UHGV virus genome: UHGV-0197997
Source of the DNA: a virus
Direction: 5' to 3' (one strand)
Length of the DNA: 52,500 bases
Shown here: positions 26,523 to 49,645 of the stretch, in pieces
Layout: the number at the start of each line of letters is the position of its first letter
Numbering within the stretch: the stretch's first letter is position 1
The notes under the pieces: generated by a model
Told to the model about the DNA's origin: nothing
What the model saw: the letters and a program-made list of their open reading frames with translations, nothing else
Database searches by the model: none
Position numbers and translations under genes: made by a program

Positions 26523-26915
26523 ATGAACAATCTGGAAAAATTACGCGCTGTTGGGGAAGCGGTATATGGGGATAAGTGGCAGTCTGCACTTTCACGCGCC
26601 CTCGGTATTTCTGACCGTACCGTGAGGAATTTCGTGTCTGGGAAGTCCCAACCGGAAAACTTATCAAATCGCTTACTCGAGGCGATGGAGCTTGAAATGG
26701 GGAAAATCAAAGCGGCCATCGACATCATCAATAGCGACAAGTTGCGTGGTGACGACATCTCTATTGAGATGATTACTCAAATTGCAGACCGCTACGAATA
26801 CTGTGATGAACAAGATCGTAAGGCTGCGATAGACGCAATGAACAATGCAGTTTACGAGGAAACATTCCTCTCCGACCTGGAAGCAATAGCGATCAGACTC
26901 GCAATACGCCATTAA
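26523..26915 (+). CDS. HTH DNA-binding protein
   Basis: HTH-like segment QSALSRALGISDRTVRNFVSG; follows small acidic ORF; hairpin 26920-26943 after stop. Confidence 0.55.
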   Translation: MNNLEKLRAVGEAVYGDKWQSALSRALGISDRTVRNFVSGKSQPENLSNRLLEAMELEMGKIKAAIDIINSDKLRGDDISIEMITQIADRYEYCDEQDRKAAIDAMNNAVYEETFLSDLEAIAIRLAIRH

Positions 26916-26930
26916 TGTTAAGCCCACGCG

Positions 26931-27161
26931 TTAACGTGGGCTTAAATTGGGGTGTGGTGCTGAGTGCCTCTCAGTAAGCCTTTGGTCAGCAACCATGACT
27001 TGCGGTCCGAGTGAATCATAAGGATTCCATTTAAGCTGTTTCCGCCCCTCCGCACAGGGGGATTCACCACGCCAATAATTTATAGCTACTTCATTCCCAT
27101 CGTCAATAGCAAGCACTCTGTCAAAGGCACCCGAAGATGCCTTTTGCACAGTGTTATTCAC
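26931..27161 (-). CDS. Hypothetical protein, 76 aa
   Basis: ORF downstream of small membrane ORF; stop lies in hairpin loop; weak support. Confidence 0.3.
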   Translation of the reverse strand: MNNTVQKASSGAFDRVLAIDDGNEVAINYWRGESPCAEGRKQLKWNPYDSLGPQVMVADQRLTERHSAPHPNLSPR

Positions 27162-27309: not shown

Positions 27310-27728
27310 AGATACTGATCCAGAGGAAGCTGCAGAGCCTGGGAGATTTTCTTCAGAGCCACCTCTTCTTCTTCACCAATACCATCGTTATCTGCAATAT
27401 CCAGACAGAGGCAGAGAACATCCACTGCATCAGAGGTACCGGCAACATCAGCCAGTTGACGAATAGCTTCGGCGTTAGCTGAACGCGGGGAAGCTTCGTA
27501 ACGAGCGCGAATGTTCGAACTCATCTGGGCAATTTCACCAGCGAACGGGGCAAATGCCGGCAGCGCGGAGATAGTTTTCTCCAGTACCGCAATCTCTTTT
27601 GCATCACAGGTGCCATCCGCATACGCAATCGAGTATGCGCCCCAGACAGTTGCCTCTACCGCATCGCGGTTCTCCATCTTCTTAACTTCTGCTACTGCCT
27701 TACGTGCTTTTTTACCGAATCCAAACAT
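27306..27728 (-). CDS. TerB-like (tellurite-resistance TerB family) domain protein
   Basis: Two ADG-type motifs (IAYADGTCDAKE and LDIADNDGIGEEEE). Confidence 0.55.
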   Translation of the reverse strand: MFGFGKKARKAVAEVKKMENRDAVEATVWGAYSIAYADGTCDAKEIAVLEKTISALPAFAPFAGEIAQMSSNIRARYEASPRSANAEAIRQLADVAGTSDAVDVLCLCLDIADNDGIGEEEEVALKKISQALQLPLDQYL

Positions 27729-27861
27729 AGTGACTTTCCTTTTAGCGGGTGAGCCAGCGCTCAGGAATGATCAGCCCACAGAGACAGTCACACTGACTAT
27801 TCCCTATGGCTCACCCCTGAAAGGCTCTGTGGTTAAATAACGCCGAGCGTGGCGTAGATAC

Positions 27862-28038: not shown

Positions 28039-28114
28039 TGGTGCTGGTTGACGGAATCGAACCACCGACATCCTACTTACAAGGCAGGTGCTCTACCTAC
28101 TGAGCTAAACCAGC
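28039..28114 (-). tRNA. tRNA-Thr (anticodon UGU), phage-encoded
   Basis: Hand-folded cloverleaf: acceptor GCTGGTT/AACCAGC, D-arm GCTC-AGTAGGTA-GAGC, anticodon loop CTTGTAA, T-loop TTCGATT, encoded CCA; T-stem needs two wobble pairs; 5' end overlaps methyltransferase stop by 10 nt. Confidence 0.55.
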
Positions 28115-40210: not shown

Positions 40211-40843
40211 ATGAGCCTTGCAGAACGCGTAAAGCAAAAAAGAATCGAACTTGGTCTTACTCAAGAGCAAGCCGCTGAAAAGGCAGGAATAAGGCAACAA
40301 TCATGGGCCAGCATTGAAGATGGAAAAACTAAAAAGCCTCGCAACATTGTAGGAATAAGCAAAGCACTTAAGTGCGACCCAACATGGTTGATGAACGGTG
40401 GGCCTTTTATGGCTCTTGCCGATGTGAATTCAAGGAAAGTACCTTTGATCAGTTACGTCCAGGCTGGGGCATTAGCAGAAAAACACCCAATTGATGCATT
40501 TGATGGTAGCTTCGAATACATCATGACAGACCTTGATATTTCTGAGTTTACTTTTGCACTAAGGATAGAAGGTGATTCAATGGAGCCTGACTTTAAAGAA
40601 GGCGACATTATCATTGTCGATCCAGAGTTAGAGCCCGTTCCGGGCGAGTTTGTTGTTGCTAAAAATGGTGATAATGAGGCAACTTTTAAAAAGTACCGTC
40701 CTACATTTACCGATATTTCAGGCCGCCAGCAATATGAACTGGTCCCCCTTAATGACGACTACCCCACCATCAATAGCTCTGAATGCCCGTTGAAAATTAT
40801 CGGCGTAATGGTCGAACATAGAATTTACAGGCGAAAAAGGTAA
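40211..40843 (+). CDS. cI: CI-like repressor (HTH-XRE plus S24 LexA-type peptidase domain)
   Basis: N-terminal HTH; C-terminal GDSMEP motif and downstream Lys region typical of S24 autopeptidases. Confidence 0.85.
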   Translation: MSLAERVKQKRIELGLTQEQAAEKAGIRQQSWASIEDGKTKKPRNIVGISKALKCDPTWLMNGGPFMALADVNSRKVPLISYVQAGALAEKHPIDAFDGSFEYIMTDLDISEFTFALRIEGDSMEPDFKEGDIIIVDPELEPVPGEFVVAKNGDNEATFKKYRPTFTDISGRQQYELVPLNDDYPTINSSECPLKIIGVMVEHRIYRRKR

Positions 40844-40942: not shown

Positions 40943-40990
40943 TACAGTTTTGACTGTTGACGAATTAACAGTTTTATCTGTATTATTAAT
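40943..40990 (+). promoter_or_regulatory. OL/pL-like operator-promoter region
   Basis: Two further ACAG-N6-CTGT sites (40943-40956, 40967-40980) flanking TTGACG with AT-rich -10 candidates. Confidence 0.5.
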
Positions 40991-41093
40991 CCATCAACAG
41001 CGAACAGGCAGGACGCCCACGAAGTAGCCGCCCGGGGCATACGAAGGCCGGGATGATTCGCAGGTATGAAAAAAGCGCCCCGTAGGACGCTTA

Positions 41094-41145: not shown

Positions 41146-41341
41146 TATGAAGGCAACTGAACCAAAAATCATTGCTCCTAGCAGCACCGAGGAAGAGGTC
41201 ATCTCCTGGATGGAACGGAAAATTAGTGCATCACATCGGCTTAAAACCGCAATCGCCGAAAGAGAAGCTCTTAAGCAGTCAATCGAAGTGGTCGATCAAC
41301 TCATTGACGAACTCACCATCGCTGCGGCTTTGGAATTGTGA
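41146..41341 (+). CDS. Hypothetical small protein, 65 aa (first early-left gene)
   Basis: ATG preceded by GGAGG; track start at 41066 lacks an SD and would cover the boxA-like element; no Arg-rich N-like motif. Confidence 0.45.
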
Positions 41342-41759
41342 GATACAGATCTGGATCCCACTCTTCCTCTCGTATTTCAGCGAAGTAGTGTTCAGCTCGG
41401 TCAGCTAAATAATTTTTGAGAACACGTTGAGCCAGATCCGGAAGGTTTTCAAATTTTAATTCTTCCTGAAGGAGGAATACGGACTCCTGCAGGGTCAAAG
41501 CCTTTATTTCAGATAATGGCCATTTGTACTTTTGAAGGATCAAGTGCAACAAAGCGAGTTTTCCGGGTAACGGGCTCCATAAGGTTCCGTGTTTTTCACG
41601 ATGTCGCTCAAGTAGGACTTCAAGTGCAAATACGAGTGAAGCACGATTTTTGACCTGGGAATAGCCGGGTTCAGTAACTGAACCAAACACTGCTATACCG
41701 TGTAGTTCGGAAAGATTATTAAGAATTTTCTGGAAAAATTCTTCGCTAATAACACTCAT
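41313..41759 (-). CDS. Hypothetical protein (antisense insert in early-left region)
   Basis: ATG preceded by AGAGGTG; opposite orientation to surrounding operon; direct repeats CCCCAACAAC upstream. Confidence 0.5.
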   Translation of the reverse strand: MSVISEEFFQKILNNLSELHGIAVFGSVTEPGYSQVKNRASLVFALEVLLERHREKHGTLWSPLPGKLALLHLILQKYKWPLSEIKALTLQESVFLLQEELKFENLPDLAQRVLKNYLADRAEHYFAEIREEEWDPDLYLTIPKPQRW

Positions 41760-43208
41760 AGCAACACCTCTTCGTTGTTGGGGATATCCAGATTAACCGA
41801 ATCCTTGTTGTTGGGGAATAACCAGGATCCACCTCGCCTGATGTGGTGAAAAGCAGGCACATAAAGTGGCAGGTGTCTTCGGGAGGGGTAACAGAGGTGC
41901 GGCCTGATTAACCGCAACTCATAGTAAAATTCCTACAACTGGTGGCGATACCCAAGCCAGGAATGCCGAAAACCAGTAGGAGTGTTAAGGACAAGGGCTC
42001 ATCACCACCTTAGCACCCCGCCCGAAGATACCTGAACGAACATGGCGAAAGCCGACAGCGTTGAAGGCGATTTTCTCGGTTTGCGCGCTAAACAATAGCG
42101 GGGGTGAAATCGGGGCGGAGAAGCAGAATCCGCGATGTCGGGACTTGATACTTCCGGCCATACCAACAAGCCGAATGATCGCGTAACGGTCCTTTGCATC
42201 TGCCCCGGCGAGGTGGCGCCGCCGGACCGGGGTAGATGAATCGTACCCAACATGAAAGCGCATTCCATCTTCCATCGGTCGTGGGGACTGGTTTGTCACT
42301 GAAGGAGTGCGCTTCCAGTTGTGAACGGCAATATTCGCAACCGTTGTATGGCACATGCAGCGTCAGCGGCCTGAGAGTTCCCTTTATCCATGCGCTCACA
42401 GGACAACCGGAAATGTGCAAGCTAAGTGTTTCAGGCACGACGTGCGCCCCACCAGCGCGGCGAAAAGGTGTGACACCCGGGAAGAGTTCGTTCGGGACAC
42501 AACAGGAAAGAGCACTGAAGATGCCAGGAAACGCCCTACCGCCAGGCAGACAGACGGGTTATCCCGCAAGGGGTGGCGGCAGTGCTCTTACCGTTGTGGT
42601 GTAGCTCAAATGGATAGAGCGCCCCTCGTATGGGGAGTTGAGCACTAACCAATGTTCGCAACACAGGTTATCTCATGCGGTCCGGCCGGACGTTATGCGG
42701 GTTCGACTCCCGCCACCACAGCGCACAACGATGAGGGCTCTGACGAGCAAGGCACAGAGTCTGGTTCGATTCCAGACGCCAGGATAGTTCGATATCTGGT
42801 GATGGGCAGGGAAAAGGTCCGTTCGATTCGGACACCGGCAGTGCCCTCTTCGTTGTGGTAATTGCGGCTATGCGCACCCAGCGAGCCAAACCGTTCAATG
42901 AATGCGTTTCTGGGCAGTGTACGCCTCCGGTTATGGCTTAACCCGGCAGGTGGAGGCACCACCGCCACAACCTAGTTAACTGTGCTGTGTGTAGTCTTGG
43001 CGGTTATCCAGTTTTCCACTACCCAAAGGAGGAAGAGGATAACGTTCTGATGGGTAACCGCCCTTTTTACACAAGACAAAAGAGCATCACCGGGCGACGG
43101 GCTCATAACCCAATCCACCCGGGCGGCTGCTAACCGCAGATGCTCTTCTGTGTTGTGTATGGAGAAAATTCCGGCGGTTGCAGCCGCCTTTCATGAGGGT
43201 AAAAAACC
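41760..43208. other. GC-rich ~1.45 kb region without credible coding ORFs, containing tRNA-like fragments (candidate structured RNA or decayed tRNA locus)
   Basis: Only mutually overlapping ORFs in many frames with Arg/Cys-rich translations and no SD-start contexts; tRNA-like motifs at 42595-42841. Confidence 0.5.
42595..42721 (+). ncRNA. Split tRNA-like element (acceptor and D-arm, ~75-nt insert, T-arm and acceptor)
   Basis: 5' TGTGGTG-TA-GCTC-AAATGGATA-GAGC; 3' GCGGG-TTCGACT-CCCGC-CACCACA-G with fully complementary acceptor strands; intervening region lacks a canonical anticodon arm. Confidence 0.35.
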
Positions 43209-43580
43209 ATGAGTAATGATCGCATGACAGTCGTGCCCGATTTCCTGGGCGAGCTCGATGCCGGCGTGTTCATGAATAAGATTGCGGCGGCTCTCAATAC
43301 CACCGCGCTCGGCGTTCTGAACAACGGCAATAAAGGCAAGGTAGTCCTCACCTTTGATTTTGAGCGTATGGGCAACTCCGTTGAAGAGAAGCGCGTCAAG
43401 ATTAAGCATCGCCTGAATTACAGCACCCCTACCCCACGCGGCAAAGCGTCCGAAGAGGACACCACCGAAACACCTATGTGGGTCAACAAAGGCGGCAAGC
43501 TCACCATCCTGCAGGAAGATCAGGGTCAGCTGTTCGGCATCACCGGCACGGTGGATGGAAAGCTTAAAGCGGCTCAGTGA
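43209..43580 (+). CDS. Hypothetical early protein, 123 aa
   Basis: ATG preceded by GAGGGT; first gene after non-coding block. Confidence 0.5.
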   Translation: MSNDRMTVVPDFLGELDAGVFMNKIAAALNTTALGVLNNGNKGKVVLTFDFERMGNSVEEKRVKIKHRLNYSTPTPRGKASEEDTTETPMWVNKGGKLTILQEDQGQLFGITGTVDGKLKAAQ

Positions 43581-43636: not shown

Positions 43637-44464
43637 ATGTCTCAGTTAGACAGCGGTACTTTTCAGCAGGTTAAAGAACTGGTGCTTTCCGGTTATCACC
43701 TGAACGATATCCCCGGCCTGGCCTGCCCGACGACTATTTTGCCGGATGGCACTACCGTAGCAAGCCTTGAACGTTTCGCCCTGGAACGTTTCCGTTTCCG
43801 TGGGGCAATGGACACGACCAGCATTGATGATTTCGTTCGCTATTCCGTCGCTTATGCCCAGGAAGAAGAAAAAGCACGTTGCTTTATCGATGCAGACAAC
43901 ATGCTGGCGCGTTCCATCTTCAATATCGGCACGCTTGATAACCCAGGCCACGCTGATAACGTAGCTTCGATCAAACTGAAAAAAACCGCCCCTTTCTGGG
44001 CATTGCTCGCAATCAATGGCGATCGCCTGAGCCAGAAACAAATTGCTGAATGGCTCGAAGACTGGAGCGATTTCTTGCTCGCTTTCGATGCTGAAGGGCA
44101 AACCATGGATATCTCCAAAGCTGCACAGGCTGTTCGTCGGGTGACTATCCAGCAGACTAATCAGGCCGACCACGAAGATAGTGATTTCGCTGGTAGAAAA
44201 TCGCTGATGCAAAGTGTAGAAGCGAGCAGCAAAGATGTAATGCCGGTCGCTTTCGAATTTAAATGCATCCCCTACGAAGGCCTGGGCGAACGCCGCTTTA
44301 GTCTTCGTAACAGCCTACTTAAAAGTGGCGAACCCGTATTTGTGCTGCGGATTGTTCAACTCGAAGCGCAGGAAGAAGAAATGGCTAATGAATTCCGCGA
44401 TTTGTTGATTGCTCAGTTCGACGACAAGCCGGTGGAAACCTTTATCGGCAACTTCAAAGCCTAA
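43637..44464 (+). CDS. Hypothetical early protein (DUF2303/YfdQ-like by memory)
   Basis: ATG preceded by AAGGA; 275 aa. Confidence 0.4.
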   Translation: MSQLDSGTFQQVKELVLSGYHLNDIPGLACPTTILPDGTTVASLERFALERFRFRGAMDTTSIDDFVRYSVAYAQEEEKARCFIDADNMLARSIFNIGTLDNPGHADNVASIKLKKTAPFWALLAINGDRLSQKQIAEWLEDWSDFLLAFDAEGQTMDISKAAQAVRRVTIQQTNQADHEDSDFAGRKSLMQSVEASSKDVMPVAFEFKCIPYEGLGERRFSLRNSLLKSGEPVFVLRIVQLEAQEEEMANEFRDLLIAQFDDKPVETFIGNFKA

Positions 44465-48254: not shown

Positions 48255-48464
48255 ATGGCAAAACTTATGAAAGCGAGTCAATGGGGCAAACGCGAATTTG
48301 CTAAAGACTCTATTCCTGATAATCGAACGATTAAACGTTGGGTTGAAAATGGACTCCTTACGGGAAAGATCGTCGACGGATCCGTTTTCGTCTTCGAGTC
48401 TGAAAAATGGGGTGTCGACTCAATGGTTAACCACACAGTTCGACAGCTAATAAATGAAGGTTGA
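48255..48464 (+). CDS. xis: Excisionase-like small DNA-binding protein
   Basis: 69 aa basic protein immediately upstream of and overlapping integrase start; SD GGAGG. Confidence 0.5.
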   Translation: MAKLMKASQWGKREFAKDSIPDNRTIKRWVENGLLTGKIVDGSVFVFESEKWGVDSMVNHTVRQLINEG

Positions 48465-48466
48465 CC

Positions 48467-49645
48467 ATGGCAGCAAGACCAAGAAAAAGAGAATATCGTC
48501 ATCTTCCTGAATACCTGATCTTTGATAAGGATCGAGGTGTATACAAATTCACACTCATAACGGGAAAGAAAAAGAATCTTGGTAAAGACCGAGCTATGGC
48601 GATAGCTATAGCTCGCGAATATAACCTAAGAATGAGGCCCTTTAATGCACCATCGGTTGAATTATTAATCCGAGACTCCGGGGGGATCTCTGGGGAAGCT
48701 AAACCATTTGCTGAACATGTAGATCATATTATGGCCCGAGCGATTGAAAATGAGCGCCCATCTCAAAATACTCTTGATGACTGGAGTAACGACGCACTTC
48801 GGGTGAAAGAATTCTTCGTCGGTATGCCAGCCTGCGATATCGAGCTGGAGCACGTGAACGCCTATATAAACCATTATCATGCTGATGCTTCAGCAAACGT
48901 ACAAAACAGGAAGGTCAGCTTCCTTAAGAAACTATTCTCCTATGCTGTCGATGAATCATTGATGTTTGATAACCCTGCTACACGTAAAAAAATGCGAAGG
49001 ACTGAGGAGAAGAAACGGCAGCGCCTGTCACTCGATAACTTTAAAGCCATCAGACTCGCCGCCGAACCATGGCTGCGTACCGCTATGGATTTAGCATTGC
49101 AGACGACGCATGCACGCCTCGAGGTGTCACGAATCCGATATTCAATCAGTGAGCCAAAAGATGGAGTCTGCGGGTGCGTATGGCTGGCACAGCCGGAGAA
49201 TGGGATATATGGCACGCTATACATCCACCGCCAGAAAGTACAGAAGAAAGAGGCCTCGCATGTTGCAATCCCGATCGGGGAAGAATTGAAACGGATTATT
49301 GACGAAAGCCGCGATAACGTAGCTAGCCCGTTTGTCGTTCATCGAATTCCTGAGCGGCAGGTTAAACGCAGCAAAGAGGTTTCACACCCGACACAGGTTG
49401 CGCCGGATTATCTGAGCCGGTCCTTTTCCGCGGTGCGAGACAAGCTAGGTTTATGCGACAAACTGGCAATGGATGAAAGACCAACCTTTCACGAAATTCG
49501 AGCGTTGGCCGCTCACCTCTTCGATCAGCAGGGTATAGATCCACAAGGTCGAATGGCGCATAGCGATGCAAAGTCCACCAAGATTTATACTCAAAATCAT
49601 ATAGACTGGGTCGTCGTCCCTCATGGTGAAATCAAAGCCTGTTAG
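48467..49645 (+). CDS. int: Tyrosine integrase (lambda Int family)
   Basis: C-terminal catalytic region with HEIRALAAH ... KSTKIY(Tyr); N-terminal arm-binding-like domain; start at ATG after SD GAAGG. Confidence 0.85.
   Translation: MAARPRKREYRHLPEYLIFDKDRGVYKFTLITGKKKNLGKDRAMAIAIAREYNLRMRPFNAPSVELLIRDSGGISGEAKPFAEHVDHIMARAIENERPSQNTLDDWSNDALRVKEFFVGMPACDIELEHVNAYINHYHADASANVQNRKVSFLKKLFSYAVDESLMFDNPATRKKMRRTEEKKRQRLSLDNFKAIRLAAEPWLRTAMDLALQTTHARLEVSRIRYSISEPKDGVCGCVWLAQPENGIYGTLYIHRQKVQKKEASHVAIPIGEELKRIIDESRDNVASPFVVHRIPERQVKRSKEVSHPTQVAPDYLSRSFSAVRDKLGLCDKLAMDERPTFHEIRALAAHLFDQQGIDPQGRMAHSDAKSTKIYTQNHIDWVVVPHGEIKAC

Follow-up and report, generated by a model that had tools for sequence, protein, structure and literature searches.

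A mosaic of conserved, predicted RNA modules with a tRNA-like element ahead of the early-left genes of temperate phages of Enterobacterales

The stretch analysed here, called the window throughout, is the 52,500-nucleotide (nt) virus genome UHGV-0197997, and our subject is a block at 41760–43208 on its plus strand. An earlier note, made from the letters of the window alone, had described this block as GC-rich, without credible genes, and carrying a split element that resembles a transfer RNA (tRNA), and all of this is borne out. The six longest open reading frames (ORFs) of the block, which lie within 41985–42968, have no Pfam or PHROG match, and its GC content of 0.56–0.58 is a rise over the surroundings. 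Comparison with related phages indicates that the block is a chain of independently assorting RNA modules, not one fold and not a decayed remnant, and that its architecture is one of conserved, strand-specific, modular RNA. The modules include a 127-nt tRNA-like element and four X-hairpin cassettes (H1 to H4), in each of which a constant stem, the X stem, encloses an exchangeable interior of 30–170 nt. In order along the block, the predicted modules are:

41760–41864 (+): Module A, with a remnant at 41765–41784 that resembles an X 3′ arm; common to the phages SfIV, F1055 and Kp4866-6
41829–41858 (+): conserved element CCACCNCGCCUGAUGUGGUKAAAAGCAGGC, found elsewhere in the layouts of other loci
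41870–42034 (+): Y hairpin, about 165 nt, with the near-palindromic closing stem CAGGUGUCUUCGGGAGGGG / CCCCGCCCGAAGAUACCUG (inverted repeat I4, 20 nt, 90% complementary)
42038–42244 (+): Module B, common to Citrobacter phage phiNP and several other loci
42245–42325 (+): X-hairpin cassette H1, stem variant AAGCGCA/UGCGCUU, fold z = −2.4
42326–42496 (+): segment between H1 and H2, which moves together with H1 in Klebsiella phages (as a block, 42245–42521)
42497–42600 (+): X-hairpin cassette H2, fold z = −2.2
42595–42721 (+): tRNA-like RNA, 127 nt
42724–42857 (+): X-hairpin cassette H3, 134 nt, fold z = −4.4, 14 variants
42852–42971 (+): S module (GUUGUGGUAAUUGCGG ... GGCAGGUGGAGGCACCACCGCCACAAC); in locus L172 (2400–2525) a genuine tRNA-Arg lies directly 3′ of it
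42988–43069 (+): terminator-like hairpin (GGCGGUUAUCC ... GGGUAACCGCC) with CUUUUUA, inverted repeat I5, z = −3.6, just 5′ of H4
43068–43159 (+): X-hairpin cassette H4, z = −6.0, with a 26-nt inverted repeat (43068–43093/43134–43159, 85% complementary)
43173–43208 region (+): small hairpin GGCGG-UUGCAG-CCGCC (43173–43188), then the Shine–Dalgarno sequence GAGGG and a start codon at 43209

The tRNA-like element is matched over its whole length by the Rfam tRNA model at 39.8 bits (gathering score 29); where the model has the 15-nt core of the anticodon arm, the element has 66 nt. The acceptor stem UGUGGUG/CACCACA, the D arm and the T arm with its conserved loop residues are all present, as the note had it, and these helices covary. 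The complete predicted fold has seven helices: the acceptor, the D arm, an extra hairpin of 4–5 base pairs (bp), two segments of an extended anticodon-like arm, a long variable arm and the T arm. Conservation of the stems in homologues, which the note had asked about, is found: 96.7% of the fold is paired across 20 aligned variants, against 37–53% in slid controls. Compensatory changes occur in 15 pairs of the fold, compared with 2–4 in the controls, and 0 of 500 shuffles scored as high.

This is nevertheless no canonical tRNA, for which a 5-bp anticodon stem and a length of about 73–93 nt would be expected: the element is 127 nt long, and a 7-nt loop tips an irregular arm behind the extra hairpin. 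That loop carries U33 and A37-A38 and reads UUCGCAA in the window and NUCAUAA in most relatives, giving an “anticodon” of CGC in the window's group and CAU in most variants. The CCA end is unencoded, the acceptor being followed by G-CGC in the window and by A-CCC, A-CUC or G-CCU in variants, and ARAGORN calls no tRNA or transfer-messenger RNA (tmRNA) anywhere in the block, 42595–42721 included. The note had also considered an intron-containing or permuted tRNA. This idea finds no support, in that no intron family scores and the insert, at 66 nt small for a group I or group II intron, is made of conserved helices. An Rfam scan, which the note had proposed, covered the whole window at the gathering threshold and the block and related loci to an E-value of 10. 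Apart from the tRNA model, the latter search returned an 8.5-bit tmRNA fragment in the block and no other tmRNA match, and no match to introns, GOLLD/ROOL, DicF, AgvB or AsxR; Y RNA families, among them YrlA, were likewise absent from the matches in 41500–43400.

Homologues of the tRNA-like element occur in a P1-like plasmid, in Cronobacter phage JK004 and in about 30 further viral contigs, which together provide 24 unique variants; the gapped pattern used for the scan of viral contigs gave mostly chance matches, and these were filtered with a hidden Markov model. Lambdoid, P1-like and JK004-type phages all conserve the element as a unit of 127 nt. Almost every variant comes after an X 3′ arm, and the next CACAAC, with which the X stem consensus opens, follows most of them. 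In the window, the last 4–6 nt of the H2 3′ arm double as the first nucleotides of the acceptor stem. A covariance model (R1) built from the alignment finds one copy in the window, at 166 bits, and one divergent copy in locus L145, between two cassettes. The annotation pipeline of the National Center for Biotechnology Information labels the homologue in the P1-like plasmid as a 129-nt “tRNA-Met”. In that plasmid, from E. coli CH468 (locus L005, 2870–4560), two X-hairpins and the tRNA-like RNA occupy 1.1 kb without annotation; downstream are small ORFs, a tRNA that is annotated as tRNA-Ile (tRNA-Met with anticodon CAU according to ARAGORN) and then the gene for Tad2 (anti-Thoeris).

The X-hairpins extend far beyond the window. 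Beginning with 111 of them in 56 unique leaders, and with a scan of viral contigs for the 3′ arm that added at least 120 loci, we count at least 254 X-hairpins (172 unique) in 58 interior clusters among 207 phage loci collected. A few clusters are chance matches, so that there are about 55 real interior types, in hairpins of 66–209 nt. The interior of H1 is present in 25 copies across loci, while H4, which most related loci carry 5′ of their first early-left gene, is present in 77 copies and 46 unique variants. A separate scan of genome contigs with 14 specified bases was too loose to give a host range, with about 5 real hairpins among the 120 matches listed and chance matches making up the rest. 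Cassettes are found in pL leaders, in the interval between the Q antiterminator and holin genes, beside terminase and portal genes, among head genes and after lysis genes, as well as in the P1-like plasmid, beside tRNA-Ile and the Tad2 gene, and in Cronobacter phage JK004.

The consensus of the X stem is 5′-CACAAC-A-GG-U-AAGAGCAUUG ... CAGUGCUCUU-U-CC-GUUGUG-3′; with its two arms side by side it can be written CACAAC.GG.AAGAGCAYUG / CAGUGCUCUU.CC.GUUGUG. This is a helix of about 20 bp, in which 6 bp are followed by a bulged A, 2 bp, a U·U mismatch and about 10 bp that often include a U·G wobble. It is 91–94% paired across copies, against 31–58% when the partner strand is slid by 1–2 positions. 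Pairing is maintained through compensatory variants at positions 14/36 (A-U, C-G, G-C), 8/43 (G-C, U-A) and 20/30 (G-C, C-G, A-U, U-A); the irregularities are maintained too, the mismatch being kept at 10/41 and the U·G wobble at 18/32 being present in 28 of 49 sequences. One-sided changes in the X arms, in the tRNA-like fold and in H3 give G·U on the plus strand and A·C on the opposite strand, and the arm duplexes are more stable on the plus strand in most copies. The wobble, the one-sided changes and the duplex energies together argue for a plus-strand RNA rather than a symmetric DNA site.

The earlier note had set down a 12-nt direct repeat, CCTCTTCGTTGT, at 41767–41778 and 42845–42856 as a likely product of chance. 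Both copies are there, the first within the Module A remnant, and a third copy with one mismatch lies on the minus strand at 42725–42736, making three matches where 0.21 are expected with one mismatch allowed. CCTCTTCGTTGT belongs to the stem motif that recurs here, so chance does not explain its repetition. Two further structures in the note hold up well: its inverted repeat 43081–43088/43139–43146 is the core of the 26-nt repeat that closes H4, and its hairpin at 43173–43188 is kept in related loci.

Several cassette interiors resemble parts of tRNAs. That of H3 consists of a first T arm, GUCUGG-UUCGAUU-CCAGAC (42759–42777), a variable hairpin, the conserved run AUGGGCAGGGAAAAG, and a second T arm, GUCCG-UUCGAUU-CGGAC (42817–42833). 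Both T stems covary among the 14 variants: GUCCG/CGGAC is replaced by GUUCG/CGAAC or AUUCG/CGAAU, and GUCUGG/CCAGAC by GGCAGG/CCUGCC. The hairpin between them is built from any of three or four unrelated sequences. The note had taken these T arms for two independent minihelices, each with an acceptor-like end. The T-arm hairpins are real, but they are not independent, since both lie inside the H3 hairpin, and the supposed acceptor strand 3′ of the first one is the 5′ strand of the variable hairpin. In H4, a stem CCGGG/CCCGG surrounds CGGGCUCAUAACCC (43098–43111), and a hairpin with a 7-nt loop follows at 43123–43137. The 14 nt of CGGGCUCAUAACCC are those of the anticodon stem-loop in the initiator tRNA of E. 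coli; the tRNA-fMet sequence that contains them matches, at 100% identity, a tRNA-Met gene that every one of 5,426 E. coli genomes carries. Motifs akin to it (GGGNUCAUAWCCC) are met again both in other interiors and within the tRNA-like RNA, and in several further interiors a T arm stands directly against the X stem.

Genuine tRNA genes accompany the cassettes in other phages. ARAGORN places them within about 3 kb in 35 of the 120 newly listed loci, every one on the cassette strand, and the junctions between hairpin and tRNA are in fixed register. In 18 loci an X-hairpin ends 2 nt inside a tRNA-Arg(UCU), and in 5 more the 3′-arm motif does likewise; the GUG at the end of the arm forms nucleotides 1–3 of the tRNA, for example in locus L104, which is 100% identical to phage phiV10. 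Conversely, in the tRNA arrays of loci L136, L137, L148 and L172 a hairpin starts 1–2 nt past the CCA of tRNA-Thr or tRNA-Arg. Segments between cassettes are closed by pairing of their ends, GUUGUGGUG ... CACCACAAC, and contain a tRNA, the tRNA-like RNA or an S module. The arrays that bear cassettes hold Thr-UGU, Tyr-GUA, Arg-UCU, Asn, Ser and Met tRNAs. On this comparative evidence the X-cassette family is widespread and tied to tRNA gene arrays in temperate phages of Enterobacterales.

The modularity of the block itself emerges from 80 viral contigs whose first early-left protein is 98–100% identical to that of the window. The stretch from the leader to the start of this gene measures 392–2147 nt in these loci and is put together from the same pieces in dozens of combinations. 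Different pieces of the block (41773–41864, 42038–42245, 42245–42521, 42721–42858 and 43057–43167) recur in one or another of four phages, and the breakpoints of the mosaic coincide with X arms. Of two ideas in the note, a large structured non-coding RNA is half right, and a decayed phage tRNA array comes closest. The RNA does appear to be structured, but its modules assort independently and are not a single fold; kinship with tRNA arrays is real, in that modules abut true tRNAs elsewhere, but conservation and compensatory changes speak against decay.

The nearest phage to the window is Klebsiella phage Kp4866-6, at about 85% identity, and in SfIV, phiNP, F1055, ST64B and the Stx2a phage 1447 a cI gene is likewise followed by several hundred unannotated nucleotides and then by yfdP-like and DUF2303 genes. 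In the CPS-53 prophage of E. coli K-12, however, no cassette is present upstream of yfdP. Iteron-like repeats, GACGGGTCAGATTTTGA, stand 5′ of yfdP in the place of the H4 cassette (locus L447, 1380–1530), from which it appears that this cryptic prophage has lost the leader. With K-12 lacking the cassette, its annotation and transcriptomes are uninformative here.

The left part of the block contains modules of other types. The Y hairpin is a second constant-stem type with an exchangeable interior, and at least two mutually unrelated interiors of about 125 nt are found across loci. Counted on both strands, the hairpin occurs 96 times (60 of these unique) and falls into 8 clusters, all with folds of −66 to −77 kcal/mol; since the closing stem is near-palindromic, the interior types number about 4 when each strand is counted once. 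Upstream of it, Module A carries two direct copies of YCYTYGTTGTTGGGGA (repeat family D3), at 41769–41784 and 41802–41817. These adjoin the start of a minus-strand ORF of 148 amino acids (aa), and might serve to bind a protein or belong to the promoter of that gene. In the element at 41829–41858, complementarity is interleaved (CCAC/GUGG and GCCUG/CAGGC), which suggests a pseudoknot. This element lies 5′ of the Y hairpin in the window and 3′ of it in the shortest leaders (loci L031 and L040). Tandem direct repeats, as would be expected of a type III toxin–antitoxin RNA or a CRISPR-like array, were sought in 41500–43400 and none were found.

How the block might be expressed depends on its neighbours:

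40211–40843 (+): cI-like repressor gene, phrog_4 match
40957–40986 (+): pL-like sigma-70 promoter TTGACG-18-TATTAT from a consensus scan, downstream of the cI-like gene
40995–41061 (+): conserved leader of about 65 nt, which aligns in almost all of the 80 related loci
41313–41759 (−): 148-aa ORF, phrog_5286 match, left flank of the block
43209–43580 (+): yfdP-like gene, phrog_204 match, right flank of the block
43637–44464: ORF with DUF2303 match (yfdQ-like), next after the yfdP-like gene
48461–49645 (+): integrase-sized ORF of 394 aa, end of the early-left genes

Three operator-like repeats, ACAGTTTT..CTGT, surround the pL-like promoter. The conserved leader at 40995–41061 has no stable predicted fold (z = +1.5), and is presumed to be the 5′ end of a transcript that runs through the block. 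Two ACGAAG repeats occur in it, and it might be a put-like or nut-like antitermination site.

Our preferred reading, to which we give about even chances, is that the block is a non-coding chain of independently folding plus-strand RNA modules, probably an early-left leader that is cut into small tRNA-mimic RNAs. Since the array has the pL-like promoter on one side and the first early-left gene on the other, it would probably be transcribed early, as a long leader. The boundaries of its modules are tRNA 5′ and 3′ ends, and tRNA-processing enzymes would thus be expected to cut the transcript into small stable RNAs. Cleavage by RNase P is predicted at 42594/42595, where the 5′ end of the tRNA-like unit would also be the 3′ end of the upstream cassette, and cleavage by 3′-end nucleases past 42721. 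RNase III may act on the 20-bp stems, or these may do no more than stabilise the released RNAs. A terminator-like hairpin with its U-run precedes H4. The equivalent structure is found at the same position in other loci, and in L104 it recurs 3′ of the tRNA-Arg of the phiV10 hairpin–tRNA unit. This suggests that the array upstream of H4 resembles a tRNA operon and was inserted as a unit in front of H4 and the ribosome-binding site. In a promoter scan upstream of the phiV10-type unit, one weak site was found.

A number of observations weigh against this reading. Promoter and terminator alike are no more than matches to a consensus. A 91-aa ORF and, on the opposite strand, the 148-aa ORF separate pL from the array, which makes transcription through to the array an assumption. 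Where a hairpin adjoins a tRNA, it is paired up to position −1 of that tRNA and could hinder RNase P. It also sits oddly with a strand-specific RNA that a single cassette type is found in both orientations: L009 (380–490) and L016 (774–884; both leader positions) have in common a 111-nt cassette with a stem of 19 perfect bp, but its interior is inverted in one relative to the other. Such opposite orientations are the expected product of recombination between inverted arms. Conservation of the stem, and breakpoints within it, would equally be expected from recombination between repeated DNA. Finally, no specific defence system is tied to any interior.

Parallels for several features of the block exist in other systems. 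RNase III processing stems are found in ribosomal RNA operons and in the early mRNA of T7, where irregular stems of about 20 bp bracket a cargo and are repeated on one transcript. The X stem is likewise a helix of about 20 bp flanking its cargo and might be cleaved in the same way, but its sequence is far more conserved than structure alone would demand. Mitochondrial transcripts, the tRNA-like and hairpin units of murid herpesvirus 68 and MALAT1/mascRNA resemble the block in that tRNA-shaped units alternate with structured RNAs and have tRNA ends as boundaries. These tRNA-punctuated arrays are processed by tRNA enzymes, but they are eukaryotic or organellar, and processing of the block is a prediction. 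The T4 tRNA region carries co-transcribed small stable RNAs, species 1 and 2; we know of no description of cassettes of the present kind for T4 or for lambdoid phages. With phage tRNA clusters and rescue tRNAs (PMC12445682, PMC11555353) the cassettes share direction, abutment and accessory-gene positions, whereas the block itself is without a canonical tRNA and holds look-alikes and constant-stem cassettes. The predicted layout of H3 resembles in part that of the bacterial Y RNA YrlA (PMC4201824), which has a long stem formed by its ends, a tRNA-like domain with a canonical T arm, and an “acceptor” closed into a variable stem-loop. A stem, a T arm and a variable closed stem-loop are present in H3, but YrlA has a D arm where H3 has a second T arm, and no exact GNCGAAN0-1G motif was found. 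There was no TROVE protein among the scanned neighbours, although no search aimed at rsr (Ro60) was made.

Keyword searches of the literature found no description of these elements, and the consensus sequences had no match in a full-text search. Thus, while tRNA-like small RNAs of phage tRNA clusters are known, cassettes with a constant stem and a variable interior are, to our knowledge, apparently undescribed.

Of the other ways in which the block can be explained, the one that survives best, although we consider it unlikely, is that the array acts in cis: the hairpins, the terminator-like one included, and the leader would steer elongation or translation of the early-left genes, through antitermination of a Nus-factor or put-like kind, through shielding of the long untranslated leader from Rho or through control of the ribosome-binding site, and no RNAs would be released. 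The position of the array between the pL-like promoter and the first gene is what a cis-acting leader would predict, as are the presence of H4 in most loci with this first gene and the terminator-like hairpin with a U-run directly 5′ of the last cassette in many loci. In addition, the 3′-arm consensus CAGUGCUCUUUCC contains the boxA-like sequence UGCUCUUU, which would correspond to the core of rrn and lambda boxA. A boxA is single-stranded and an invariant GCUCUUUA-like sequence; many 3′ arms carry UGCUCUU(U), but in a paired and variable form. The variants UGCGCUU, UGCCCUU and UGCUCUC are matched by compensating changes in the 5′ arm, so that it is pairing that is kept. Against a cis-acting role, the conserved leader at 40995–41061 lacks a fold, and the same cassettes are also found beside terminase and portal genes, between head genes, after lysis genes and in tRNA arrays.

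A further possibility, which we regard as decidedly unlikely, is a decayed tRNA array whose inverted repeats serve as short homologies, that is, as recombination linkers at the DNA level with no function as RNA. The breakpoints at X arms are in keeping with such linkers, as is the cassette type found in both orientations, and decay is suggested by T-arm sequences near the tRNA consensus and by the real tRNAs that adjoin the modules in other phages. Linkers of this kind do not, however, account for compensatory changes in 15 pairs of the tRNA-like fold, in the H3 T stems and in the X stem, nor for G·U intermediates on the plus strand only. It is equally hard to reconcile with decay that the bulge, mismatch and wobble have been kept over about 55 interior types, and the 127-nt unit across lambdoid, P1-like and JK004-type phages.

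Alternatively, the cassettes might be mobile DNA, with arms that are terminal inverted repeats or, like integron attC, recombination sites folded from a single strand, and with a transposase or recombinase that recognises them and carries small non-coding cargo from phage to phage; this is an improbable explanation. Like integron attC sites and miniature inverted-repeat transposable elements (MITEs), the cassettes have constant inverted arms of similar length (about 20 bp) around variable centres and occur in many unrelated genomic contexts and phage types, one of them in both orientations. Their ends, CACAAC ... GUUGUG, also resemble the core of attC, the consensus of which is RYYYAAC ... GTTRRRY. 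The match fails, though, as (N)CACAAC ... GTTGTG(G/T) has A at a Y position and, symmetrically, T at an R position. In MITEs the interiors would be near-identical copies, not about 55 unrelated types. No recombinase or transposase gene is consistently nearby, and none of the ORFs around the arrays stood out as an integron integrase, although this was not searched for systematically. The fixed register with tRNA ends points to RNA processing instead of insertion, and the evidence overall favours a strand-specific RNA. The note's suggestion of a scar left by a nested integrative element finds no support, as neither an att-like duplication nor an integrase accompanies the modules, which are found in many contexts.

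A single large ornate non-coding RNA of the GOLLD/ROOL kind, or a frameshifted pseudogene, would suit a block that is long, GC-rich and strongly structured in a prophage with tRNA genes, but is scarcely credible given that no large-RNA family in Rfam matches to an E-value of 10, that the modules assort independently and that the block ORFs match neither Pfam nor PHROG.

If, as in our preferred reading, tRNA-mimic RNAs are released from the early-left leader, they may titrate host factors that recognise tRNAs or, more attractively, act as decoys for defence nucleases that target tRNAs; both suggestions are speculative. Transfer RNAs have lately come to light as a main target of anti-phage systems of bacteria, such as PARIS, retron Eco7, P2 Old, Schlafen nucleases and Cas12a3, and phage tRNAs as the countermeasure. 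Phage tRNAs of the types found with the cassettes rescue infection from tRNA nucleases (PMC12445682, PMC11555353, PMC11464382): Thr-UGU and Tyr-GUA tRNAs do so for P2 Old and retron Eco7 (PMC12445682, PMC11555353), and PARIS provides another context of tRNA-targeting defence (PMC11464382). A counter-defence role is attractive because the cassettes travel together with these “rescue” tRNA types, Thr-UGU and Tyr-GUA, and occupy hot spots of accessory genes. The X-hairpin might then be a dedicated expression and processing scaffold for a hypervariable, exchangeable set of small RNA cargoes, many of them mimics of tRNA parts. Freed from tRNA-array transcripts by tRNA-processing enzymes, these would serve the temperate phages of Enterobacterales as RNA-only decoys or sponges against defence, although we consider this specific proposal doubtful.

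The arrays that hold phage tRNAs, and the early leader of very common prophages, appear to contain a second, unannotated class of RNA, made up of tRNA look-alikes and of constant-stem cassettes with dozens of exchangeable interiors. The prophages concerned include the Stx2a phages of E. coli O157 and phages of Klebsiella, Salmonella, Shigella and Citrobacter. If the RNAs are processed and functional, they would constitute a new, RNA-only layer of the conflict between phage and host, and would account for the long “empty” stretches that many prophages show in their annotation. The constant X stem offers a simple sequence handle with which cargoes can be found and catalogued.

Some known small RNAs (sRNAs) lie in the vicinity of these loci or elsewhere in the window. 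At the edge of locus L073 (12–200, −), Rfam identifies a C4 antisense RNA and an isrK RNA (81 and 75 bits), an immunity-type pair that is absent from the window. The late region of the window contains on its minus strand an STnc100 sRNA (Rfam, 72 bits), a TerB-like ORF and a tRNA-Thr(UGU), adjoining one another at 26915–27101, 27320–27730 and 28039–28114; no X-hairpins adjoin this tRNA-Thr. The neighbourhood is that reported for the prophage Pas sRNAs, the preprint on which (10.64898/2026.05.13.724894) was considered as a possible account of the present elements and set aside, its topic being late-region sRNAs at a different locus. Partial STnc100-like matches are also found 3′ of the arrays of cassettes and tRNAs in loci L137 and L148.

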